From Alphaproteobacteria bacterium (GTDB taxonomy: Bacteria > Pseudomonadota > Alphaproteobacteria > CAAGCB01 > CAG-977): DNA of 64,000 nucleotides. Shown piece after piece: positions 3,567-16,246 of this stretch (the first letter of the stretch is position 1; each line of letters opens with the position of its first letter). The stretch covers positions 85,205-149,204 of the forward strand of contig JAFVAT010000005.1 of NCBI GenBank assembly GCA_017480385.1, given 5' to 3'. The translations under genes were made by a program, and so were the position numbers. The notes under the pieces were generated by a model. It was not told the origin of the DNA. It saw only the letters and a program-made list of their open reading frames with translations, and made no database searches.

Positions 3567-4814
3567 AAAAAGTTCAAAAACGGCGTTCAGCCTTTTCCGC
3601 CTCAGCATATCGCCGCGTTTTTCGGGCAAAGTCGCGGCTATTTCTTCCGCACTCAGCCGGATTGCCGCCGATTGTTTATAAACAGCGGAAACAAGGTTCA
3701 AAGCGCCCGCGAAATTCTTTTTCCATTCATTATCTGCGCGGTTGCAATATCTGTCCGCCAGACAGGCGATCAGGAACAATTCCGGTTTGTTTTCCGTCTG
3801 CTTGTAAATATCCCAAATAAAGTCGAATTTTTTGGCTTTTCTCATTTCGGAAAAATGATGAAAGCGCATATGGTTTTCGCAGACGAACCGGCACAGCTTC
3901 GCCGTAAAGGACGGCAGTTTCAGCCGCGCGCAAAAATCCATCCTCAACAGCTCCGCGCCCAGTTTGTCATGCCCGATGTGACGGGGGAATTCCGCCGGAT
4001 CGGTCAGCGGCTTGCCGATGTCGTGCAGTAAAACCGCCCAGTAAAGCGATTGCCTGGCCTGTTTGTTTAAATTGAAAAAGTCAACGTTCCTGTCCAGCCA
4101 TTTCAGCGCGCTGACGACGTGGCCGCCCGTGTTGCCTTCGGGGTGGTATTGCGGCTTTTCGGGACAGGAAAAAAGCATTTCCAAAGCGGGACAATAGGCC
4201 TCCAATGCTTTTAAAGCGTGCAAATTTTCGACAAACGCCCCGCCCGATTTCGCATCAAAGGCCTTGATAAATTCGGCGTAAAACCGTTCCGCCGGCAAAG
4301 AGGAAAGATCGCCTGATTCAGCCAAATGCACACATTCCGTCCGCGTCCGTTCCGTCAAGGTAAAGCCGAGCGTCGCCGCAAACCGCGCCGCCCGAACCGC
4401 GCGCAAAGGGTCTTCGCCGAAATGAGCCGGATCGACAACCTCCAATTCGCGGCGTTCCAAATCCTGCAAAGCCCGTTCGCTTACCCCCGTTTTGACAAGA
4501 TTTTCCGCTTCGTCCATAACAAGGCAATTCACGGTAAAATCGCGGCGCAACAAGTCTTCGTCAAGCGTTACGTCTTTGGAAAAGTCGAACGCAAACCCCC
4601 GATGACCTTTGCCCGTTTTGATGTCTTTGCGGGCTAGGGCGTGTTCCTCTTTGGTGTCGGGGTGCAGGAAAACGGGAAAGCCCGCCCCGACGCGCTGAAA
4701 TCCGACGGCCAGCATTTCCGCTTCGGTCGCGCCGACAACGACCCAATCCTTGTCTTCGGGCGCTTTTCCCAACAGCTTGTCCCTGACATATCCGCCGACA
4801 ATATAGCGTTTCAT
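3561..4814 (-). CDS. cca: CCA tRNA nucleotidyltransferase (poly(A) polymerase head + HD domain)
   Basis: 417 aa; 'YIVGGYVRDKLLG' nucleotidyltransferase head, 'RDFTVNCLVMD', HD motif 'LLHDIGK'. Confidence 0.8.
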   Translation of the reverse strand: MKRYIVGGYVRDKLLGKAPEDKDWVVVGATEAEMLAVGFQRVGAGFPVFLHPDTKEEHALARKDIKTGKGHRGFAFDFSKDVTLDEDLLRRDFTVNCLVMDEAENLVKTGVSERALQDLERRELEVVDPAHFGEDPLRAVRAARFAATLGFTLTERTRTECVHLAESGDLSSLPAERFYAEFIKAFDAKSGGAFVENLHALKALEAYCPALEMLFSCPEKPQYHPEGNTGGHVVSALKWLDRNVDFFNLNKQARQSLYWAVLLHDIGKPLTDPAEFPRHIGHDKLGAELLRMDFCARLKLPSFTAKLCRFVCENHMRFHHFSEMRKAKKFDFIWDIYKQTENKPELFLIACLADRYCNRADNEWKKNFAGALNLVSAVYKQSAAIRLSAEEIAATLPEKRGDMLRRKRLNAVFELFS

Positions 4815-5323
4815 TGGCTTTGCTTTTTCAAAAAGTCCAGAACAACCTGCGCCGTTTGTTCCGGCGTTTGATCACCGTTATCAATGATTAAATCCGAAAA
4901 ATCGGGATCATGACAGTGTTCTTCGTACATCTGCCGGATACGGGAAAGTTCCCATTCGGTCAGCTCCCGCGTTCCCCTGTTCATCAGGCATTTTTCCAAA
5001 GACGGCGATAACGTAATATTAAAAAAGTGCGTCTGCCCGTCTTCGTAACTTTTCCAGCGTTCGTAATTTTTCCGTACGATCGGATAGGCAAAGATCAAAA
5101 AGCGGCAAGAGTTGTCCGCCTTTTTTTGCCAAATAATCTGTTCCAGCCGGTCGACGCGTTCCCGCCAGCCGTCTTCCATTGACAACCCGAGCCGATCTTC
5201 CTCCTCATCGGACAAAAGATCGTCCACTTCAATAAACGACGCGTCAGGCAGGCTTTTGACCAAAAGCTTTGAAACGGTCGTCTTGCCCGCATTGATCGGG
5301 CCGTTGATGTTTAAAATAAGCAT
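4811..5323 (-). CDS. small P-loop NTPase/kinase-like protein
   Basis: 170 aa; Walker A 'NGPINAGKTT'; 4-nt overlap with cca start. Confidence 0.5.
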   Translation of the reverse strand: MLILNINGPINAGKTTVSKLLVKSLPDASFIEVDDLLSDEEEDRLGLSMEDGWRERVDRLEQIIWQKKADNSCRFLIFAYPIVRKNYERWKSYEDGQTHFFNITLSPSLEKCLMNRGTRELTEWELSRIRQMYEEHCHDPDFSDLIIDNGDQTPEQTAQVVLDFLKKQSQ

Positions 5324-5505
5324 TTTACAAGGTTACAAAAAAATCCGGCATAAATCAACACGGCGCAAAACCGCTTCATTTCACTTCCCGCGGTAAAAGC
5401 TTATACCGCTCCGCCGAACCCGCCCCGTTTGACAACCAGCACGACAGAACGTCCCAGATACGGTCAACAAAAAAGAAGCGTTAAAAAATCCCTCTTTTTG
5501 TAAAA

Positions 5506-6096
5506 TTATTCTTCCTTTTGCCAGACATTGATAACTTCCCCGATATACATCACATGAGGACTGATTTTGATTTTTTCATACAGTTCCGTCGCTTTATCGT
5601 CCAACAGTTCTTTTTGGAAAGGAATTTTGTAAATCGTTTTGCATTCGATTGCCAGATTCCCTTCTTTAAAAACAGGATTGCCGAGTTCCGTAAATTCCGG
5701 TGTCAAGCCGGCGGCTTTCAGCTTGTCACCGTCGCGTCCCGAATGTGACCCTATATACGCCAAAGCTTTCCGTTGCTCCTTGGGAAAACCAACAACGGTA
5801 AAGTATTCGTTTCTATCCATAAAGTCATTCGTGTAACGTTCGGGTGCGACATAAACGGTTACAACCGGTCTTTTCCATAAAACGCCGATGCTTCCCCAAC
5901 CGATCGTCATCGCGTTCATCTTGTCTTTATTGCCGGACGCCAGAGCCGCCCAATCTTTCTGAAACAGAGTGACGGGATTTTTAACGTCCGCCAAAGAAAT
6001 TTTTTTCCACCTCTCCTCCATTACCGATTTGCCGTCTTCGGCATACGCGGCGGAAGAAAACATCAAAAGTGTTATTATCAGAAAATTCAGCATCAT
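5506..6096 (-). CDS. exported flavin-reductase-like (FMN-binding split-barrel) protein, paralog A
   Basis: 196 aa; signal peptide 'MMLNFLIITLLMFSSAAYA'; ~80% aa identity to ORF 9299..9883. Confidence 0.6.
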   Translation of the reverse strand: MMLNFLIITLLMFSSAAYAEDGKSVMEERWKKISLADVKNPVTLFQKDWAALASGNKDKMNAMTIGWGSIGVLWKRPVVTVYVAPERYTNDFMDRNEYFTVVGFPKEQRKALAYIGSHSGRDGDKLKAAGLTPEFTELGNPVFKEGNLAIECKTIYKIPFQKELLDDKATELYEKIKISPHVMYIGEVINVWQKEE

Positions 6097-6105
6097 AGCC
6101 GTTCC

Positions 6106-7062
6106 TTACAATTTTTCATTAAAGAATTTTGTCAGCTTGTCCGCAATCTGTTCAACGTATTCCGGCACAAAGTATGTCTGAATATGCGTTGCGCCTTTGA
6201 TTTTGAACAATTCCTTGTCCTTTGTTCCGGTCGCTTTGGCAAAGGCGTCCTCGGTCATGTACAGAGAATCCGCCTTTTCGCCGGCAATCATCAATAAAGG
6301 CTGATTGATCAGCTCGATCTGATCGGTCGCGTCCCACGTCATCAGCTCCATCAGACTGCTTTCCGTATATTCAAACGTGGAATTCGGATGAGCATATGTC
6401 CGCATATAATATTGAAAGCCCTCGCGGTACAAATCAAACGGCAGTTTGGCGGCCTGTTCGTCTGTAACGCCCGCCATGGAACCGACCAGCCTTCAATCGT
6501 CCGATTGGGCGGTTTTCAGCGTGTACTCGCCGCCGCCGCAAATGCCCGGTATTCCGATCCGGTCGGCATCAACACCGGCGAATGTCGATATGTAATCAAT
6601 CATACCGTGAATGGATTCTTCCCGCAAAGTCGGTTTGTCGGTATGCCTCGGTTCGCCTTCGGACGCCCCCTGATAAGCCGCGTCCGCCGCAATCGTGATA
6701 TAGCCCTGTTCCGCCAGTTTTTGCGCGTAAAATCCAGCAACTTGTTCTTTCACGCCGCCGTTCAGATGCGCCACCGCGATCGCCGGATATTTTTTGTCCT
6801 TGTCGTAATTCGCGGGCAAGTAAACGTTCGCGGCGATTTTCAATCCATTCTGCATATACGTTACGGGCTTGATATTGACTTGCCCCGCGACGTTTTGAGC
6901 TATCGCCCCGTCATAAACCAGCCCGAACGGATTGCCCGCCGTCGAAACGCAGCCGCCGGATAAAAGAGCTGCTCCTATCACTGTCATTTTCAAAAATCCT
7001 TTCATTGCGTGTTTCCTTATTTCACCACTTTTTTCCAGAATTGAACGGCTTTGTCCGTCCAA
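6106..7062 (-). pseudogene. dienelactone-hydrolase-family lipoprotein interrupted by a single in-frame TGA (6493-6495)
   Basis: ORFs 6493..7062 and 6106..6477 are in the same frame, separated only by TGA plus 5 sense codons; lipoprotein signal 'MKGFLKMTVIGAALLSGGC'; Cys-nucleophile motif 'GICGGG'; likely start at 7005 or 6987. Confidence 0.45.
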
Positions 7063-7949
7063 CCCTCGGCGTTTGTCCCTGTGCCAAGACCGAATCCGTG
7101 TCCCACATTCGGATACAAATGAAAATCCGTTTCAACTCCCATTTTGTTCAACCGCTCGGATTGTCTTTGCATTCCGCGCGGATCGGCAATGCCGTCATAT
7201 TCGCCGACCGCCATAAAGACCGGAACGGTTTCGGGCGTGTAATCGCTGTGTCCGGTATAATTAACCACGACCATTGCCGGCTTCGGCAAGTCCGCCCCGC
7301 CGAACGCTTTTGCGCCATAAGTGCCGATATAAGCCGCCATGCGCGCGCCGGCGGAATCCCCCCAAACAGAATAGTTTTCCGTTGAAACTTCAAGCTTTTT
7401 ATGATGTTCAAAAATATATGTCAGAGCGTTGGCTAAATCCTCAACCGCCCAATTAGCCGAACCGCCCCGATATTTCAGCACAAAAGCGTTATAGCCCTTT
7501 TTGCTTAAATCCAACGCGATCGGAAACCCGCCGTGAAGGCTTCCGACATAAACAAATCCGCCGCCGGGACAAATGACGGCGAACGGCGCATCAGGCTTTC
7601 CTTTAAAGAAAAACAAGCCGGTATGTTTCTGTCTGTCATCGCCGTCAGGATAAAAGTTGTAAAACGTCCGATGCGTTTTAAGGTAATTCAGCCCCTTGAG
7701 CACGTCATTCATTCTGATTTCGGAAAGCCACGGCAGAATACTGCCTATGTTTTTGATTTGAGTCTCCGGCGGGTTGCGGCTTATCTCGTCCCACGGCAGG
7801 ATTTTATCGGCATAGCCTTTAAATTCCGGCGCGTTCAAGATGTCCCGAATCGTGCTGTTTTCATCAAACATTTTGATTTCCTCAGCCGCCGCTGATCCGA
7901 TTGCGCTTAATAGTGTCAATAAACAAAATCCCCAAAACCGCATTGCCAT
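7017..7949 (-). CDS. alpha/beta hydrolase fold-3 esterase/lipase (GDSAG motif), signal peptide
   Basis: 310 aa; 'MAMRFWGFCLLTLLSAIGSAAA' signal; 'HGGGF', 'GDSAGARMAAY' hormone-sensitive-lipase-family motifs. Confidence 0.7.
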   Translation of the reverse strand: MAMRFWGFCLLTLLSAIGSAAAEEIKMFDENSTIRDILNAPEFKGYADKILPWDEISRNPPETQIKNIGSILPWLSEIRMNDVLKGLNYLKTHRTFYNFYPDGDDRQKHTGLFFFKGKPDAPFAVICPGGGFVYVGSLHGGFPIALDLSKKGYNAFVLKYRGGSANWAVEDLANALTYIFEHHKKLEVSTENYSVWGDSAGARMAAYIGTYGAKAFGGADLPKPAMVVVNYTGHSDYTPETVPVFMAVGEYDGIADPRGMQRQSERLNKMGVETDFHLYPNVGHGFGLGTGTNAEGWTDKAVQFWKKVVK

Positions 7950-7967
7950 ATTCGCACATCATTCCCA

Positions 7968-8585
7968 TCACTGTTTATCCTTTTCGCCCGAATAATTTTG
8001 CAGAACAGGCCCGACGACCGTATCAAAGAAACGGTCGCTCCACCGGCTTGGCACAAAAACGCCGTCCGACATACACCAGCAGGTCATCATGCCGTAAAGT
8101 TCGGAAATAATGATCTGCGTTAAAAGATCAACAGGCGTGTTTGCGTTCAGCTCATTTTTCCGGACGGCCTGTTCCAAGATGCTTTTTAACATATCGACAT
8201 CAAACCGCCATTTGGCGTTATCCATATTTTCCGGCGCCTTGCCCGGATCGATCACGCCGCGTATCCATTCACGGCAAATGTTTATGCCGTAACGTTCGAC
8301 TTCCATATTAAATTGTTCAAAGTAATAGCGCATGCGTTCCGTGAACGGTTTGTTTTTCATGTTTTGCATATTCCGCTCTATCTTTTTGAACAGTCCGCGG
8401 CAAATTTCGTAACCGATATCTTCCTTATGCTTAAAGTGCGTATAAAAAGTGCCCTTCGCACAACCGCAGGCCTGCGTTATTTCTTCCACAAACAGATCGT
8501 CAAAGCTTTTTTTCTCCAACAGCTTAATCGTTGCCTCAATCAATTTTTGCTTTGTTTTAAGAGCGTTTTCCTGTCGTTTGGTCAT
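7968..8585 (-). CDS. TetR-family transcriptional regulator
   Basis: 205 aa; N-terminal HTH 'FVEEITQACGCAKGTFYTHFKHKEDI'. Confidence 0.8.
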   Translation of the reverse strand: MTKRQENALKTKQKLIEATIKLLEKKSFDDLFVEEITQACGCAKGTFYTHFKHKEDIGYEICRGLFKKIERNMQNMKNKPFTERMRYYFEQFNMEVERYGINICREWIRGVIDPGKAPENMDNAKWRFDVDMLKSILEQAVRKNELNANTPVDLLTQIIISELYGMMTCWCMSDGVFVPSRWSDRFFDTVVGPVLQNYSGEKDKQ

Positions 8586-8622
8586 TATTCTTTCTCCGTA
8601 TTTGATAAATATACGTTTTCAA

Positions 8623-8650
8623 TGACTCAGAGTCAATGACTTGAAGTCAT
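8623..8650. promoter_or_regulatory. tandem operator palindromes TGACTCaGAGTCA (8623-8635) and ATGACTTgAAGTCAT (8636-8650) upstream of tetR
   Basis: Two perfect inverted repeats 38-65 nt upstream of the tetR start codon. Confidence 0.55.
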
Positions 8651-8660
8651 CTTTATCAAA

Positions 8661-8701
8661 AACAACAAAAAAACCGGAGCAACGTTTTTAACATCGCTCC
8701 G
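8661..8701 (-). terminator. intrinsic terminator after flavin reductase gene
   Basis: Minus-strand hairpin CGGAGC(n15)GCTCCG followed by T-run. Confidence 0.5.
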
Positions 8702-8722
8702 ATCAATTTGAGGCTCGGAATC

Positions 8723-9286
8723 TTATTTTTTCAAAGCCAGTCCGTCATGGAAAGCCCGTCCGACCTTGTCGCCCAGAACGCGGTAAACGTGAGCCGCGCC
8801 GTCATAGGAAATCGGTCGAAGCTTGCCCAAATCGACGTTTCCTTTTTCGTCAAGAACGCTTTCGTCCGCCGCCATATTGACGACCCGTCCGACAACGCGG
8901 TAATCGCCGTCCTCTTCTTCCATTTCAATGACTTCGCATTCCAGAGTCAGCGGAAATTCCTCGATCACGGGCGCATCGACAAATTCGCTTTTCGTCACGT
9001 GAACGCCCGCTTTTTCGATTTTGTTGACGTTATTACCGCTTTCAACGCCGAAATAATCGGCAACCAGCATCGTTTCCGGCGTAGCAAATGACAAAGTGAA
9101 CGCCCGTTTCAGCATCAGATTGTCCGTTGTCTTGTGCGGCCCGAGCAAAAAAGTTACTTCGTGATAGCCGCACTGCGTCCCCCACGCGGCGTTCATCGCG
9201 TTCGGCACGTCGTTTTCGTCATACGTCGCGATAATAAATACGGGCAACGGCGCAACGACCGTCTTGTTTCCTAAATTCTTCTTCAT
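8723..9286 (-). CDS. flavin reductase-like domain protein (cytoplasmic)
   Basis: 187 aa; 'VVAPLPVFIIATYDENDVPNAMNAAWGT' is typical of the flavin reductase (DIM6/NTAB) family. Confidence 0.6.
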   Translation of the reverse strand: MKKNLGNKTVVAPLPVFIIATYDENDVPNAMNAAWGTQCGYHEVTFLLGPHKTTDNLMLKRAFTLSFATPETMLVADYFGVESGNNVNKIEKAGVHVTKSEFVDAPVIEEFPLTLECEVIEMEEEDGDYRVVGRVVNMAADESVLDEKGNVDLGKLRPISYDGAAHVYRVLGDKVGRAFHDGLALKK

Positions 9287-9298
9287 CGTTTTTTTCCT

Positions 9299-9883
9299 TT
9301 ATTTTTTCCGCCAAACGTTCACGACTTCACCGATATACGTCACGTGCGGACTGATTTTTATCCTTTGATATAAATCCTGCGCTTTGTCGTCCAACAGCTC
9401 TTTTTTAAACGGCTCTTTATAAATGATTTTGCATTCGATCGCCAGATTGCCCTCCTTAAAAACGGGATTGCCCAGTTCGGTGAATTCCGGCGTTAATCCG
9501 GCGGCTTTCAGCTTGTCGCCGTCCCGCCCCGAATGCGTTCCGATATAAGCCAGAGCCTCCCTTTTCGATTCGGGAAAGGCAACAACTGTAAAATAGTCGT
9601 TCCTGTCCATAAACTCGTTCGTATAGCGTTCCGGCGCAACATAAACCGTCACGATCGGCCTTTGCCACAAAACGCCGATCGTTCCCCAGCCGATAGTCAT
9701 CGCATTCATGCTGTCTTTGTTTCCCGCCGCCAAAGCCGCCCAATCCTTGTGAAACAAAGCCACCGGATTTTTAACGTCCTCAATTGAAATTTTCTGCCAT
9801 TCCGGTCCCATTTTCCGCTCCTGTGCCTGTGCTGTTCCCGATAAAACAAAAATCAGGAAAAACAAGAAATAAATCCGCTTCAT
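9299..9883 (-). CDS. exported flavin-reductase-like protein, paralog B
   Basis: 194 aa; signal 'MKRIYFLFFLIFVLSGTAQA'; ~80% identical to 5506..6096. Confidence 0.6.
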   Translation of the reverse strand: MKRIYFLFFLIFVLSGTAQAQERKMGPEWQKISIEDVKNPVALFHKDWAALAAGNKDSMNAMTIGWGTIGVLWQRPIVTVYVAPERYTNEFMDRNDYFTVVAFPESKREALAYIGTHSGRDGDKLKAAGLTPEFTELGNPVFKEGNLAIECKIIYKEPFKKELLDDKAQDLYQRIKISPHVTYIGEVVNVWRKK

Positions 9884-9892
9884 TGATTTTTC

Positions 9893-10918
9893 CTATTTCA
9901 ATTTATTGTAATCAGAATCGCCGACTTCTTCCAGCCATTCGGTCGAAGCGCCTTCAGCCGGAACGCTCATCGCGATATGCGTGAACCAGCTGTCCTTCGC
10001 CGCGCCGTGCCAATGCTTGACTTCGGCGGGAATATGGACGACATCGCCGAGGTGCAGTTCCTGTGCAGGTTTGCCCCATTCCTGATACCAGCCGCGCCCC
10101 GCCGTCACCAGCAAAATCTGACCGCTCTTGTGATGAACATGCCAGTTGTTGCGGCACTTCGGTTCAAAGGTCACGTTCGCAATGCCGACTTCCTCTTTAT
10201 TCAGCGGCTGTAAATAGCTTGTCCCCTTGAAGTATTTGGCATAAGCCATGTTTTCCTGCCCGAAACCAAACAAAATGTCCTGCGCGGCAGCCTTTTGCGC
10301 GACATTCAGGATTTCCGCCACCTGTTCATCGGTCAACCCGTTATGCTTGCCAACCGCAATATGACTGTTCAGCTGGCTTTCGACGCCGTTACGTACGGAA
10401 AGCATCGCGATCGTCGCCACTTCTCTGGTCTGCCAATCCACATTGTCGCGCGCGAAAATGTCGCCGAACAAATGCGCTTTCAGATATTCGTCGATCGCCG
10501 GCGCGAAATCAAACAGAGGCCCTTTAACCTCCCGTCCCGTCAGCTTTGTCTGATTCGCCGCGCCGTATTCCAAAGCCGTTCCTTTTGGCTTAGCGGAAGG
10601 CAAGCTCCCCTGTTCATCCTTGTTTCCGCGTTCGTTAACAACCGTCATCAACGTGCCCAAAGCGTTTAAGGCCCTCGGGAATCCACAGTAAGCGTAAGCC
10701 TGCGTCAGAATTTCCTTAAACTCGTTGACCGTCACACCGTTATCCAAACCGTTGATCAAAGCCTGTTTCAGCCCTTTTTGATCGCCTTTCGCCGTATAGG
10801 CTGCAACCTCGGCGATTGTTTTTTGTTTCGCGGTCAAAGCTCCGTTTGCCATTGCGTTTCCTCCCGTAAAAAGAATAAGCGCGCCCAGAAACAGCGCAGA
10901 TAAGTTTCTATTCGACAT
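9893..10918 (-). CDS. carboxymuconolactone decarboxylase (CMD) domain + cupin domain fusion, signal peptide
   Basis: Likely start at 10918 (MSNRNLSALFLGALILF...); cupin motif 'HHKSGQILLVTAGRGWYQEWGKP...GDVVHIPAEVKHWHGA'. Confidence 0.55.
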   Translation of the reverse strand: MSNRNLSALFLGALILFTGGNAMANGALTAKQKTIAEVAAYTAKGDQKGLKQALINGLDNGVTVNEFKEILTQAYAYCGFPRALNALGTLMTVVNERGNKDEQGSLPSAKPKGTALEYGAANQTKLTGREVKGPLFDFAPAIDEYLKAHLFGDIFARDNVDWQTREVATIAMLSVRNGVESQLNSHIAVGKHNGLTDEQVAEILNVAQKAAAQDILFGFGQENMAYAKYFKGTSYLQPLNKEEVGIANVTFEPKCRNNWHVHHKSGQILLVTAGRGWYQEWGKPAQELHLGDVVHIPAEVKHWHGAAKDSWFTHIAMSVPAEGASTEWLEEVGDSDYNKLK

Positions 10919-10953
10919 CTTGCACTCCTTGAGTTTTTTTATTAGATTAGCTT

Positions 10954-10975
10954 TTAAAGCTGACTTTAAGTCAAG
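10954..10975 (-). promoter_or_regulatory. operator-like motif TTAAAGctgaCTTTAAGTCAAG with embedded TGACTTtAAGTCA palindrome, upstream of the CMD-cupin operon
   Basis: Matches the 3544-3566 motif and the tetR operator half-sites. Confidence 0.5.
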
Positions 10976-11029
10976 CATTTTTTTAACTGCCGCTGAAAAA
11001 GCATATCAAAGCTAAAACTCTTCTAAAGA

Positions 11030-11593
11030 GTTGTGGTTTGACGCAAAATAATCATCTGCTATAATTCCGTCTGCATATAATTCGACAATCCCCGGCGTTG
11101 CGGTTTGACGCAAAATAATCATCTGCTATAATGGGAGCGGGGAGGAATCACCCGCTCTTTACGTTGCGGTTTGACGCAAAATAATCATCTGCTATAATGA
11201 ATGATCAAGGATTCGGCGGTGTTGATTAGTTGCGGTTTGACGCAAAATAATCATCTGCTATAATCGGACGGGGGATGATAAATATCTCCGCGTTGTTGCG
11301 GTTTGACGCAAAATAATCATCTGCTATAATTCAAGCGCATTATCGATGTCGATGCATAAGTTGCGGTTTGACGCAAAATAATCATCTGCTATAATCAAAG
11401 TCCTTAAAAATGAGACGTAACGGCAGTTGCGGTTTGACGCAAAATAATCATCTGCTATAATTCTTGACCAGCTCTAAAGTCAGTCAAAAAAGTTGCGGTT
11501 TGACGCAAAATAATCATCTGCTATAATTAGGAGCAGTAAGGATGAAGGTTTGCGTTTGTTGCGGTTTGACGCAAAATAATCATCTGCTATAAT
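11030..11593 (+). CRISPR. CRISPR array, 9 x 36-bp repeats (GTTGCGGTTTGACGCAAAATAATCATCTGCTATAAT), 8 spacers of 29-31 bp
   Basis: Repeats start at 11030 (degenerate, C5T), 11097, 11163, 11229, 11295, 11360, 11426, 11492, 11558; unique spacers; each repeat carries TTGACG-N16-TGcTATAAT on the + strand. Confidence 0.95.
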
Positions 11594-11599
11594 ATCAAT

Positions 11600-11632
11600 G
11601 AAAAAAGCCTTTGAAAACAAAGGCTTTTTTCT
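11600..11632. terminator. bidirectional intrinsic terminator between CRISPR array and cas2
   Basis: AAAAAAGCCTTTGaaaaCAAAGGCTTTTTT: 8-bp stem, A-run 5' and T-run 3'. Confidence 0.7.
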
Positions 11633-11643
11633 TTATTTTTCGT

Positions 11644-11973
11644 TTAAAAAAGTGTCAGCTGCTCCGGTTTTTCCGATATCAAAACAGGTTTTCGATTCCG
11701 AAATGTGATAATGTCGGCAAATTGTTTGTCCGTAAAAAACAAAATGCTGACGTTACCGTCCGGCGGAATCTGCTTTTTTATTCTGTTTATAAAAGGCGTC
11801 GCCATTTCCCGCGTGCCGCAAAAGCGGAAATAAACCGAAAACTGGCTCATTTCAAAGCCTTCGTCCAACAAATAATTCCGAAACGCCGTCGCCCGTTTGC
11901 GTTCTTCGGGTTCCGCCACGGGCAAATCGAACATTACCATCATCCACATCAGATTGTATCCCGTCACCGACAC
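11644..11973 (-). CDS. cas2: CRISPR-associated endoribonuclease Cas2 (GTG start)
   Basis: 109 aa; 'MSVTGYNLMWMMVMFDLPV' Cas2 N-terminus; begins 1 nt after cas1 stop. Confidence 0.9.
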   Translation of the reverse strand: MSVTGYNLMWMMVMFDLPVAEPEERKRATAFRNYLLDEGFEMSQFSVYFRFCGTREMATPFINRIKKQIPPDGNVSILFFTDKQFADIITFRNRKPVLISEKPEQLTLF

Positions 11974-11974
11974 A

Positions 11975-12883
11975 TTAAAGGTTCCACAGATTTTTTCCGG
12001 TCATCGCTTCGGGCAAGTTCAGACTGTCCGCTTCCCCCAAAACGCATTTTTGCAAAGAAACCGCCAGATCGGAAATCAGATACCCGACTTCACATTCCCG
12101 ATCGCCCGTTTTCACCGTACGGGACAGCAACGCGACAAGCCGTTTTTTCACTTCCGGCGTAACAGAGCCGAACTCGTCCTCATCCGTCATACGATAGACG
12201 CAAAAATCAACCAGAGGGCGGAACGGTTCCATCAAATCGTCCGCCAGACGCATCGCATTGTATTGATTTTGATGATGTATCCCCAAAGACGGATGCAATC
12301 CCGCCCCCGTAATCGCCCGAACAACCGAGGATCGTAAAATCGTATAACCGTAATTCAGCATCGCGTTAATGCCGTCCTGCGCCCTATCCCTGCGGAAATC
12401 CTTGCCGAACAACGTTTGAAAATAATATTTTGCCCCCTGCCCTTCCAAATTTTTGGGATCGCCGTTTTTGACCTGCTTTGCCATATAACGCAGAGACGCG
12501 TCCGGCTTTGAACAGGTTTTCAAAACTTCCGCCTGTTGCGTCAGTTTGGCTTGAATGATGTCTTTCCAATAACGGTCGGCGGCGGATTGCTTCATTCTAG
12601 CCTGAGCCGTCAGAATGTCGCCCTGCAAATGGTGGTTTTCCAGAGGGATCATAATCGAAGCGGGAACGTGATTCGCTCCGCAAACAACGAAAGGCGCATT
12701 CTGTTCCGCCAACCGGACAAGCAGATTGTTTGAATAGGTCAAGCCGTGCGCGTTGGCAATCACCGCCCCGATCTGATCGATCGGCACGCGCCCGACCTCT
12801 TGCGCGTTTTCATATACGACCATAAAACCGTGATCGACCGCCAGATAGCGATTATCCTGCGTGATTTCGATGATTCTATCCAT
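11975..12883 (-). CDS. cas1: CRISPR-associated endonuclease Cas1 (type II)
   Basis: 302 aa; Cas1 fold motifs; start overlaps cas9 3' end by 8 nt. Confidence 0.95.
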   Translation of the reverse strand: MDRIIEITQDNRYLAVDHGFMVVYENAQEVGRVPIDQIGAVIANAHGLTYSNNLLVRLAEQNAPFVVCGANHVPASIMIPLENHHLQGDILTAQARMKQSAADRYWKDIIQAKLTQQAEVLKTCSKPDASLRYMAKQVKNGDPKNLEGQGAKYYFQTLFGKDFRRDRAQDGINAMLNYGYTILRSSVVRAITGAGLHPSLGIHHQNQYNAMRLADDLMEPFRPLVDFCVYRMTDEDEFGSVTPEVKKRLVALLSRTVKTGDRECEVGYLISDLAVSLQKCVLGEADSLNLPEAMTGKNLWNL

Positions 12884-15800
12884 CCGCCTGCCCTTCCGGA
12901 CGCTTCGGGTCTATCACCCGTCCGTCTATCGTCACGGTGATTTTACGTCCGTTATGTAATCTGAATTGTTCAGCAGATGCGGCCCAAGAAAGTTTATCCG
13001 CTTCTTCTTTCGCAATAAGATGAGGACGTAAATAAAACAAAATACCTGTCATCTTTTTAACTCGGGCGATGATTGTTTCCCCGTCTTTTTCATAAGCGAC
13101 CATATCGTCAATATGCAGACGCATAATCAGTTTGGCGTGGGCGTCCGTATGACGCCATTTCGGAACGAAGTCTTTCTGATGGGCGCAATAGTTCGGAATG
13201 ATCTCGATTTGCCATTTTCCCGCGTTTTTCCCTCTGTCGGGACAGTAAATCTCCGCATACGCGTTTCCGCCGTAAATCGCGTAACGATACGGTTTCCCGT
13301 TTTTATCTTTAAAAGGCAGAATGACATTCTTGTTTCTTTCCCGATACGTCCTGACCTTGCGCGTGTTCCTGTCGGCAAAATAGCTCTGAATGATTGCTTC
13401 GTGTTCGGATTTGTCTTTCCCGTCCAACAAAGCGCGGATTTTATCCGCCGTTCCCGCTTGGTCGATGATGATATCCAAATCCGCCTCCGTTTTAAACTCG
13501 GTCACGGGGACGCGCTGAATCAGTTTCCACGTCCTTTTCTTATCTCCCTCGCCCGCAAAGCCGTAATACGTTTCCTCGTGCAATTTGGCGACCGTCTTTC
13601 CTTCCTGAATAGCTTTTTGCGGGTTGCCGTGGTCGGGTTTATGAGAAATCACCATACGGTCGAACGCGTCCTGCAATTCCCGCAGTCTGAATTCCGGATA
13701 AGGCAGATGAGGCGCCTTTTCCTGCGGCATTTGCGTGGAATAGTCACGTCGTTCCGTGGCATATTTCTGCAACGTCCCCCGTCCCGTGCAAGCGACAATA
13801 AACGCGTCCAAAGCGTGGTGGCGGTGATCCGTCCTATCCTTTTGATCTTCGGGGAACAGAGATTCCAATCCCCAATGGTGGCGCAGTTTCGCCGTCAGCT
13901 GTCCGGGGATGCCCCACACCTTCGACGGATTTGCGGCAAAGCACAAATACTGACGCGCCACCCGCGCCATATATTGCGTATCGGTCAGCATACGCGCCAG
14001 AACATCGTCCAAGTCCTGAAAAGCGTCTTCCCTGAACTTTTTCGCGCGGTTTTTCTTTTCGTCGTGCTTTAAGGAAAAATTTTCAACGCGCCCCAGAATC
14101 TCATTCCAACGTTTTTCATCGGCGTGGAAAGCCTCCCACGGAGAACGATTGCCTTTTTCACGGTTGCACGCACGGCAGGAAATGACTTTGTTGGTGCGGG
14201 CGTCCGAATATGACCGCGCAAACGGCAATAAATGCTCGATTTCAAATTCATCGGAAAACAGATGTTCGAAATTTATTGGCTTGCCGCAGAACGGACAACA
14301 CCTTTGAGACGAATCGTCGGAGGAATCCTCCCACAACTTGTATTTCATCCTGTTGTCATAAGAGTTTTTGACGCCTAAACGCTCCAATTCTTTGGCGATA
14401 CGGTCGTTATCTTTCGTGTTTTCCGTTTGCAACTTGTTCAATTCGTCTTTGGCTTTTTTACCCAACTTCAACTCGCGCGCCAATTCGACGACGATCGATT
14501 CGGGATGACCATAGCGTTTTACCAACTCGTTAATCAACTTTCTGACTTGATTCAGCGCGATGTGAACGGTCGGATTATTGATTTTTCCCCAGTATTTTTC
14601 GGGAAAATCCTTGTCCGCCGCGGCGTTCGTTCCGCCGATGACCGCTTTTGGCATCGCTTCCCCGTAATACGGCAACTCGTCATACACATCGCCCGTTTCC
14701 GGATTGATGAAAGTGTTGTAATATTCGGGTAAAGTCCCTTTCGTCTTTAAAGAAAACGTGTAGCCTGCCGATTCGACCGCCTGATGATACGGCTGTCCTT
14801 CGCGCAGAAAAGGATTTATTTTTCCTAACGCCTTCAAGCTTAAAGACGCCGTGCCGTCTTCCAAAGACGTATGCGCAACGGCTTCCGCCTGCTCCGGACT
14901 TAAAGCGTATTTGTCTTTTAATTCTTCAATCAGTTTCGATTCGTCCTGCGCGTTTAAAAGCAACGCCACGATTTCGTTTTGTTTTTCTCTGTCAAAAGAA
15001 AACCATTCCTTGCCGAAACAAGACTCATCCGCCAACTGCGCCGCCGTCGTGTCCGCGTCAAGTCCTTTGCGTTTTTCCGATTCCAGATTAAACGACACTT
15101 TCGGATTGACGCCGAACGGTTTGAGCAATTTTTTCGCCGCCGACCAGGTCAATGTCCGCTTTTTCTTATCCAAAGCGGAAAAGTCCTTTGCCGTGAAACG
15201 GTATAAAACCTCACGTTCCTCCGGCGTTAAAAAGCGTTCATCATCATCGTAAAGAATTTTCAACTGGTTGATCTGTTGCAATAAACGGCTTTGCTGAAAA
15301 GCAGGATAAGCGCAATACGCGCGGCGTTCGCCTTCCTCGAACTGACATAATCCCAATTCGGGCTGTTTCAACGGACGCTGATTGAAAATGATGTGGAAAA
15401 GATCGTCTTCGATTTCTTTCGACAAACCTTGCTTCGTCATAATTTGCCGAAATTCATCTTCGTACATTGCACGGTCGGGATAAAGCGGATAGGACGCTTT
15501 GCTCTTGACCACGATTGATTTTGCGCGAACAGGAACAAAATCCTGCGTGGAGGTTTTATCTTTGTTCATCAGGTACAGATATTCCCCCAAAGTCCGCGCG
15601 CCCGCTTCCGTCATACGTTTTCTTGTTTCGGCAATCGCGGTCTTCATCGCGCCCGTTTCCGCATCCTTTTTATCCGTCTTTAAATTGCTTTTAAACCCTC
15701 TGCGCTGATTGATGTGAAACAAAGCCCGCCCCAATTCATAGGGAGTCAGCTTTTCATCCAACGCCTTCGCGCGTAAAAAGTAGGGATCAAGCATTTCCAA

Positions 15801-16076
15801 CGCTTTGCGTTCCGCTTCGTCCTGCGGCATCAAACCGTATTTGATCAGCCTGTTCATCAGCGTTTCGCGACGCATCACAAAACGGTCGCGGCGTTTGCGC
15901 ATTCCTCTGGCCGTCCGGCGGGCGACCGCAAGCGGCTCTTTCGTTTTCGAATCCCGTCCGTCCGAAAAAATACGGACACCGAAATTTTCAAAGCGGTACG
16001 GCGCGCCGTCTTTTGTTTCGATGATGCTCCAGCCTAACGACGTTTCGCCCAAATCCAATCCCAAAACATAACGCAT
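12876..16076 (-). CDS. cas9: Cas9, type II-C
   Basis: 1066 aa; RuvC-I 'LGLDLGETSLGW', Arg-rich bridge helix 'RRTARGMRKRRDRFVMRR', HNH 'EIEHLLPFARSYSDARTNKVISCRACNREKGN', RuvC-III 'HHALDAF'; no csn2 or cas4 in the locus. Confidence 0.95.
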   Translation of the reverse strand: MRYVLGLDLGETSLGWSIIETKDGAPYRFENFGVRIFSDGRDSKTKEPLAVARRTARGMRKRRDRFVMRRETLMNRLIKYGLMPQDEAERKALEMLDPYFLRAKALDEKLTPYELGRALFHINQRRGFKSNLKTDKKDAETGAMKTAIAETRKRMTEAGARTLGEYLYLMNKDKTSTQDFVPVRAKSIVVKSKASYPLYPDRAMYEDEFRQIMTKQGLSKEIEDDLFHIIFNQRPLKQPELGLCQFEEGERRAYCAYPAFQQSRLLQQINQLKILYDDDERFLTPEEREVLYRFTAKDFSALDKKKRTLTWSAAKKLLKPFGVNPKVSFNLESEKRKGLDADTTAAQLADESCFGKEWFSFDREKQNEIVALLLNAQDESKLIEELKDKYALSPEQAEAVAHTSLEDGTASLSLKALGKINPFLREGQPYHQAVESAGYTFSLKTKGTLPEYYNTFINPETGDVYDELPYYGEAMPKAVIGGTNAAADKDFPEKYWGKINNPTVHIALNQVRKLINELVKRYGHPESIVVELARELKLGKKAKDELNKLQTENTKDNDRIAKELERLGVKNSYDNRMKYKLWEDSSDDSSQRCCPFCGKPINFEHLFSDEFEIEHLLPFARSYSDARTNKVISCRACNREKGNRSPWEAFHADEKRWNEILGRVENFSLKHDEKKNRAKKFREDAFQDLDDVLARMLTDTQYMARVARQYLCFAANPSKVWGIPGQLTAKLRHHWGLESLFPEDQKDRTDHRHHALDAFIVACTGRGTLQKYATERRDYSTQMPQEKAPHLPYPEFRLRELQDAFDRMVISHKPDHGNPQKAIQEGKTVAKLHEETYYGFAGEGDKKRTWKLIQRVPVTEFKTEADLDIIIDQAGTADKIRALLDGKDKSEHEAIIQSYFADRNTRKVRTYRERNKNVILPFKDKNGKPYRYAIYGGNAYAEIYCPDRGKNAGKWQIEIIPNYCAHQKDFVPKWRHTDAHAKLIMRLHIDDMVAYEKDGETIIARVKKMTGILFYLRPHLIAKEEADKLSWAASAEQFRLHNGRKITVTIDGRVIDPKRPEGQADG

Positions 16077-16149
16077 TGAAAGAAAACTCCTTAAAAATTG
16101 TTTCTAAAAATATTGACATACTTTACAAATATGTGACAACTTATATCTA

Positions 16150-16246
16150 TCATTTTAGCAGATGATTATTTTGTGTCTTTCCGTTAACAAGAATCAGAGA
16201 TTCACAAAATGAAAGGGGTGACTGCGCGTCGCCCCTTTAATTTTTA
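16150..16246 (+). ncRNA. candidate tracrRNA (anti-repeat 16156-16188, terminator 16212-16246)
   Basis: 16156-16172 TAGCAGATGATTATTTT is the exact reverse complement of repeat nt 16-32, with partial complementarity continuing to ~16188; GC hairpin GGGGTGAC/GTCGCCCC + TTTAATTTTT at the 3' end; TTGACA at 16113-16118 upstream. Confidence 0.65.

Follow-up and report, generated by a model that had tools for sequence, protein, structure and literature searches.

[quoted passage not shown] In N. meningitidis and in Campylobacter jejuni, promoters embedded in the repeats, with transcription starts inside the spacers, have been shown experimentally (PMC5965381, PMC3656092), and repeat-embedded promoters have been described for many type II-C systems (PMC7665894). 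In Neisseria, every spacer has its transcription start at the sixth nucleotide, and no crRNA arises from the repeat beside the leader (PMC12477760). For the minimal type II-C system of C. jejuni (Dugar et al. 2013, PMC3656092), the repeat promoters are described with a -10 box only, and the repeats are cleaved internally by RNase III with tracrRNA. In Clostridium cellulolyticum, too, the repeat ends in nine nucleotides that resemble an extended -10 element (PMC7038990), and a repeat-encoded -33 'TTG' element has been proposed, on mostly bioinformatic evidence, for type II-C arrays of Flavobacterium (PMC8092290, PMC10309648). The orientation of type II-C arrays, which automatic tools often get wrong (PMC12638026), matters for the prediction of guides, PAM sides and targets.

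The locus compared here with these systems lies in the window (the whole 64-kb stretch of DNA that was analysed) and is classified by its layout as a type II-C CRISPR-Cas9 system of an uncultured alphaproteobacterium (Table 1). Neither csn2 nor cas4 is found among the two genes flanking it, which encode a decarboxylase/cupin protein and an ORF without assigned function, and the layout is thus that of type II-C. The system resembles that of N. meningitidis (Zhang et al. 2013, via PMC5965381, PMC12477760) in (i) a gene set limited to cas9, cas1 and cas2, (ii) an extended -10 element (TGnTAnAAT) formed by the last nine nucleotides of each repeat (PMC7038990) and (iii) the predicted starts inside spacers, transcription towards the leader and a leader-adjacent repeat without crRNA. 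It differs in that nt 9-14 of the repeat also match a -35 element, at 16-nt spacing, in that the tracrRNA is encoded divergently upstream of cas9, and in its Cas9, which is only distantly related to the Neisseria protein (Nme1Cas9, 6jdq, E = 9e-62; best match among solved structures 8jtj, E = 4e-73). The -35 element likewise sets the repeat apart from that of Campylobacter. With the Flavobacterium arrays the locus shares a type II-C repeat with a proposed upstream promoter element and transcription towards the variable (leader) end, whereas the promoter there is of the Bacteroidetes type and lacks a canonical -10. The Cas9 protein is 100% identical to one that NCBI names 'MAG: Alphaproteobacteria bacterium', and its relatives form a graded series of 90-60% identity, followed by proteins of 48% and below.

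Table 1. Features of the CRISPR-Cas9 locus; positions are those of the window
Feature	Position	Strand	-35	-10	Predicted start	Remarks
CRISPR array	11030..11593	+				9 repeats x 36 nt, 8 spacers x 29-31 nt; crRNA sense = +
Repeat 1	11030..11065	+	11038-11043	11060-11065	~11071-11073	cas-distal, oldest; C5>T; TG 11057-11058
Repeat 2	11097..11132	+	11105-11110	11127-11132	~11138-11140	
Repeat 3	11163..11198	+	11171-11176	11193-11198	~11204-11206	
Repeat 4	11229..11264	+	11237-11242	11259-11264	~11270-11272	
Repeat 5	11295..11330	+	11303-11308	11325-11330	~11336-11338	
Repeat 6	11360..11395	+	11368-11373	11390-11395	~11401-11403	
Repeat 7	11426..11461	+	11434-11439	11456-11461	~11467-11469	
Repeat 8	11492..11527	+	11500-11505	11522-11527	~11533-11535	
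Repeat 9	11558..11593	+				adjoins leader and cas2; promoter points straight into leader hairpin
Leader (~50 bp)	11594..11643					last repeat to cas2 stop codon; predicted site of new-spacer insertion; conserved in 11 related loci
Predicted bidirectional hairpin terminator	11600..11631					GAAAAAAGCCTTTG-AAAA-CAAAGGCTTTTTTC; 14 bp, -18.4 kcal/mol
cas2	11644..11973	-				TIGR01573, E = 9.5e-19
cas1 (type II, NMENI subtype)	11975..12883	-				TIGR03639, E = 6.8e-78
cas9 (1066 aa)	12876..16076	-				TIGR01865, E = 1.4e-175
Predicted tracrRNA promoter	16113..16142	+	TTGACA, 16113-16118	TGa-CAACTT, 16134-16142		18-nt spacer; block conserved in 13 loci
tracrRNA (~97 nt)	16149..16245	+				anti-repeat 16152-16187, stem-loop 16191-16203, terminator 16212-16238 + T-run

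The repeat, GTTGCGGTTTGACGCAAAATAATCATCTGCTATAAT, is identical in eight of its nine copies, the exception being the single substitution in copy 1. All nine read GTTGCGGT-TTGACG-N16-(TGc)TATAAT: TTGACG occupies nt 9-14 and TATAAT nt 31-36, and the 16-nt spacer between them (nt 15-30), a length within the 16-18 nt of sigma70 promoters, carries TG at nt 28-29, the extended -10 element TGCTATAAT thereby comprising nt 28-36. The promoter scan gives every repeat a sigma70 score of 11/12 plus TG, and the initial annotation, which had reported TTGACG-N16-TGcTATAAT in each repeat of the array, is borne out in motif and coordinates. As copies of a single repeat, the nine sites count as one observation, not nine. 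The chance of reaching at least 11/12 is 5e-5 for one random 36-mer (3.5e-6 with TG) and 2e-4 among shuffles of the repeat itself (1.6e-5 with TG). The looser pattern TTGAC-N16-18-TANNNT is about as frequent in the window outside the array (four matches) as in 100 dinucleotide-preserving shuffles of it (mean 3.8). Compared with the Caulobacter RpoD consensus TTGaCgS / GCtANAWC (PMC8144410), the repeat fits 7/7 positions of the first element (nt 9-15, TTGACGC) and 7/8 of the second (nt 29-36, GCTATAAT), the two lying 13 nt apart. A 5-bp hairpin within the repeat (nt 2-6 with 13-17, -6.2 kcal/mol) was dismissed, because A or C at nt 14 in relatives breaks the pairing.

The motif was followed through 80 genomic loci encoding Cas9 relatives (34-82% identity) and eight further loci from metagenome assemblies. 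An array is present in 60 of the first 80 loci and in all 60 it lies after cas2, with a repeat antisense to cas9 that reads GTTGC...CTAnAnT on the strand opposite cas9; nearly all of the array-bearing loci also have an anti-repeat, on the other strand than cas9 and ~80-200 nt upstream of it. The key -10 positions (TAnnnT, nt 31-36) are almost invariant: among 61 distinct repeats, T31 is kept in 60, A32 in 56 and T36 in 57, with G29 kept in 49 and T28 in 31, while nt 15-27 vary freely. Judged by the criteria of the promoter scan itself, 24 of the 65 distinct repeats count as promoter-like on the crRNA strand, as against none on the opposite strand, at a random expectation of 0.5%. The conserved 3' positions fall in the part that is dropped from the mature crRNAs of the studied type II-C systems, those of C. 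cellulolyticum, for instance, retaining 24-28 nt of the repeat (PMC7038990). Conservation of the repeat ends could also stem from recognition by the Cas1-Cas2 integrase.

Within the close clade (Cas9 62-100% identical), the repeat changes only at nt 14, 16, 21, 23, 24 and 33, that is, at the weakest -35 position, in the spacer and at the weakest -10 position; TTGAC, TG and TA-AAT stay constant. Loci from further metagenome-assembled genomes named Alphaproteobacteria bacterium (L001-L004, L081-L088) have the same repeat family, leader hairpin, tracrRNA promoter and tracrRNA structure as the window, and their repeats read TTGAC(A/C/G)-N16-TGCTA(T/C)AAT. Apart from the repeat positions just named, they differ from it only in spacer content and genomic location; in three cases (L003/L085, L004/L081 and L087) the promoter match is a perfect 12/12 in place of 11/12.

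At a probability of roughly 0.8, each crRNA of this type II-C locus is transcribed separately from its own promoter within a repeat. The housekeeping RNA polymerase would bind the 3' end of the repeat (TGcTATAAT, nt 28-36), probably aided by TTGACG at nt 9-14, and transcription would start 6-8 nt into the following spacer and proceed on the + strand through the next repeat. The latter would pair with the tracrRNA (encoded on the + strand upstream of cas9) through its anti-repeat, and the duplex would be bound by Cas9. RNase III may trim the 3' end, while the 5' end of the guide would be made without this enzyme, and each spacer would yield a guide of ~23-25 nt. Array read-out and the opposing cas operon would both halt at the conserved hairpin in the 50-bp leader beside cas2, and new spacers are probably inserted at this leader. 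Repeat 9 should produce no crRNA, its promoter running into the leader hairpin, by analogy with the R26 allele of Neisseria (PMC12477760). The motif, the gene set, the tracrRNA with its + strand position and the family-wide -10 conservation on which this model builds are observed. Its start sites, the activity of the promoters, the contribution of the -35 and the independence from RNase III are predicted by analogy.

That a crRNA promoter is embedded in the repeat is already known for type II-C, and the present locus exemplifies it clearly without being out of the ordinary. By its gene content, geometry, orientation, reliance on a tracrRNA and repeat-embedded extended -10, the locus belongs to the type II-C class that Neisseria and Campylobacter represent. 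Only the clade-wide -35, with its putative function, goes beyond the Neisseria and Campylobacter case. In a literature search that was not exhaustive and had the primary Neisseria paper outside its reach, no description of a sigma70 -35 in type II-C repeats was found beyond the Flavobacterium 'TTG' proposal. Being common to a clade of mostly uncultured alphaproteobacterial systems, the -35 is no peculiarity of the window. The distinction from Neisseria that had been drawn earlier on account of this element is less novel than implied: the consensus-like -35 is there, at 11/12 for the whole promoter, but TTGAC is shared by a whole Cas9 clade, three relatives reach 12/12, and a contribution to transcription is not separable from the role of the motif in the RNA. 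Were the -35 functional, the 36-nt repeat would be a compact, strong and self-contained promoter, a sequence under constraint as promoter at the DNA level and as Cas9 guide scaffold at the RNA level; if it is not, the locus is one further case, from an uncultured host, of the Neisseria/Campylobacter mechanism.

As in Neisseria, the core of the working promoter is very probably the extended -10, and the odds that the -35 adds promoter strength are about even. Two accounts of TTGAC have to be weighed. At somewhat less than even odds, nt 9-13 may be put to dual use, having been selected as a working -35 in the DNA (bound by sigma region 4) and as a U-U internal loop and lower stem in the RNA. Also possible, if rather doubtful, is that the extended -10 alone serves as the promoter, as in Neisseria, and that TTGACG is kept for RNA or protein reasons and adds little or nothing. 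The position of the motif bears on both accounts. The crRNA retains the part of the repeat with TTGAC, which in the crRNA:tracrRNA duplex contributes to the internal loop and the lower stem, T8-T10 facing TTT of the anti-repeat and G11-C13 being paired; its promoter role is not separable from this duplex role, and Cas9 (by reading the loop and lower stem) or the integrase could be the agent that conserves it. Yet T9 and T10 remain T whether they are unpaired, as in the U-U internal loop of the alphaproteobacterial loci, or paired with A, as in Cloacimonadota, which indicates a constraint on the repeat strand and not on pairing. Against an extended -10 acting alone speaks, furthermore, that matches to TTGACA peak at offset nt 9, the register that gives a 16-nt spacer (at least 5/6 in 19 and at least 4/6 in 34 of 61 repeats), and that 5/6 is reached at no other offset in any of the 61 repeats. 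The only -35 position that varies in the close clade is nt 14, the least important one, and it covaries with the anti-repeat. The partner tracrRNA promoter, finally, has TTGACA, and the host polymerase thus evidently reads such elements.

The distribution of the motif among relatives points the other way. Cloacimonadota repeats keep TTGACA but have TGATAT instead of TAnnnT at nt 31-36, TTGAC is replaced by TGGACC, TTGGCC or CCAGAG in most other related clades, and the distribution of the motif agrees with the phylogeny of Cas9 and not with host taxonomy. The partial repeats found at the cas-distal end of arrays also favour the extended -10 as sole promoter. These terminal units have no upstream spacer and can therefore act only as promoters; several relatives retain the 3' end only, the 5' part often being gone, which points to the extended -10 as the essential element. 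The partial repeats of L087 (ATCTGCTATAAT only) and L088 (CGCTATAAT only) have the -10 and lack the -35, and in that of L001, TTGACC is present but at a spacing of 14 nt. Such evidence is suggestive only, being exposed to ascertainment bias: deletions of a whole terminal unit would escape notice, and partial repeats are thus no clean natural experiment. Poly-G runs of 10-25 nt lie beside or near the terminal repeat in the cas-distal flank of L014, L021, L025 and L038; they are probably sequencing or assembly artefacts, which makes apparent partial repeats at these places untrustworthy. The arrays of L083 (9488-9523) and L088 (9644-9679) consist of one intact and one 5'-truncated partial repeat around a single spacer and resemble the collapsed-array state discussed for Neisseria (PMC12477760). 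If the dual use of TTGAC is real, the alphaproteobacterial type II-C clade would possess promoters of full consensus, scoring as high as 12/12 plus TG, at intervals of 66 bp; guide expression would be unusually strong and independent of the leader, and the need for a promoter would constrain the co-evolution of repeat and anti-repeat.

A quite different route is the canonical one of type II systems (PMC5965381), in which the repeat motif would be inactive and one long precursor, made from an outside promoter, would be cut by RNase III and tracrRNA as in type II-A. For the present locus this is improbable. The promoter scan found no other + strand promoter-like site upstream of the array (11030), where the start codon of a divergent gene is only 51 bp from repeat 1; the array lies antisense to the cas operon, and a terminator shields it from the latter; and internal promoters are documented for type II-C. 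The family-wide -10 signature on one strand only is a further argument against an inactive motif. Transcription of each crRNA from its own repeat promoter, as the initial annotation had proposed, thus finds support in the -10 conservation, in the one-strand result of the scan (24/65 against 0/65) and in the lack of a rival promoter upstream.

The divergent gene itself (9893-10978, - strand, 361 aa) encodes carboxymuconolactone-decarboxylase-like repeats and a cupin-like C-terminus and is directed away from the array. No minus-strand promoter was found by the promoter scan in the 51-bp gap between this gene and repeat 1, and the promoter of the gene may thus sit within the first repeat units.

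At the other end of the array, the leader hairpin is flanked by A-runs and T-runs, so that termination is possible in both directions; as a predicted terminator, it can end transcription of the cas operon and crRNA read-through alike. Its sequence lies 7-9 nt past the last repeat in all 11 close-relative loci examined. The hairpin core (AAAAAGCCTTTG-gaaa-CAAAGGCTTTTT) is kept in sequence, without covariation, in the window and in L001-L004, L081, L083-L085, L087 and L088 (Cas9 62-100% identical), and, besides termination, it might serve spacer integration as a leader element. The cas-distal flanks of the array are unrelated between close-relative loci, and a degenerate repeat is found at the cas-distal end in the window, L002 and L003. 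In type II-C, acquisition takes place at the transcriptional 3' end (PMC12638026, PMC12477760); together with the conserved leader and the cas-distal degenerate repeats, this suggests that new spacers enter beside the leader.

The strand of the crRNA follows from the tracrRNA independently of the repeat promoter. The anti-repeat forms 30 of 36 possible pairs with the repeat and is located 76 nt upstream of cas9 in divergent orientation. Ahead of it, ending a few nucleotides before the anti-repeat in the window, is a promoter that reads TTGACA-N17/18-TGnCAAnnT across 13 aligned loci; in all 13, its -10 starts with C, not T (CAAnnT). Behind it is the terminator, a G+C-rich hairpin with a T-run. 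Across 12 loci, RNAalifold finds compensatory changes at nine base pairs of the two tracrRNA hairpins, and crRNA and tracrRNA cofold at -69 kcal/mol. A search of Rfam at the gathering threshold gave no match anywhere in the window, which places the tracrRNA outside the curated families. With the tracrRNA real and on the + strand, the crRNA strand is + as well, and the array is antisense to the cas operon, its read-out running towards cas2. The initial annotation had arrived at the same strand and direction from the repeats, and promoter, covarying stem-loop and terminator of the tracrRNA, all on the + strand, agree with it; promoter motif and tracrRNA jointly fix the orientation of the window's array. 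In many systems, cas2 and array are by default assumed to be co-oriented (PMC7665894). That the crRNA of the present array is made from the minus strand, co-directionally with the cas genes and with the + strand motif irrelevant, is hardly credible, as it needs a minus-strand tracrRNA where cas9, without a terminator, lies downstream of the anti-repeat, disregards the conserved promoter, covarying hairpins and terminator of the + strand tracrRNA, has a terminator standing between cas2 and the array, and finds a promoter-like site on the minus strand in none of the 65 repeats.

Protospacers, which could have indicated PAM side and orientation, were searched for with 49 spacers (those of the window and of L001-L004) in a phage collection and with exact 21-22-mers of four window spacers in IMG/VR, without a match in either; against all fetched loci, the spacers gave only chance matches of 13-18 nt.

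The opposite strand of the anti-repeat (16152-16187, -) resembles a degenerate repeat, AAGACA-16-TGcTAAAAT, that faces cas9 (ATG at 16076) and is the sole promoter-like match on the cas9 strand between the hairpin at 16212-16238 and cas9. The cas9 promoter may thus overlap the 5' end of the tracrRNA gene in a head-to-head arrangement. This putative -10 of cas9 is retained in L002, L004/L081 and L086 and is displaced by a 1-nt deletion in the other close relatives. In L082 and L083, the cas9-cas1-cas2 locus (~4800-9950) is flanked by adk and rpsM within the cluster of ribosomal-protein genes, a site different from that in the window, which suggests that the locus is mobile.
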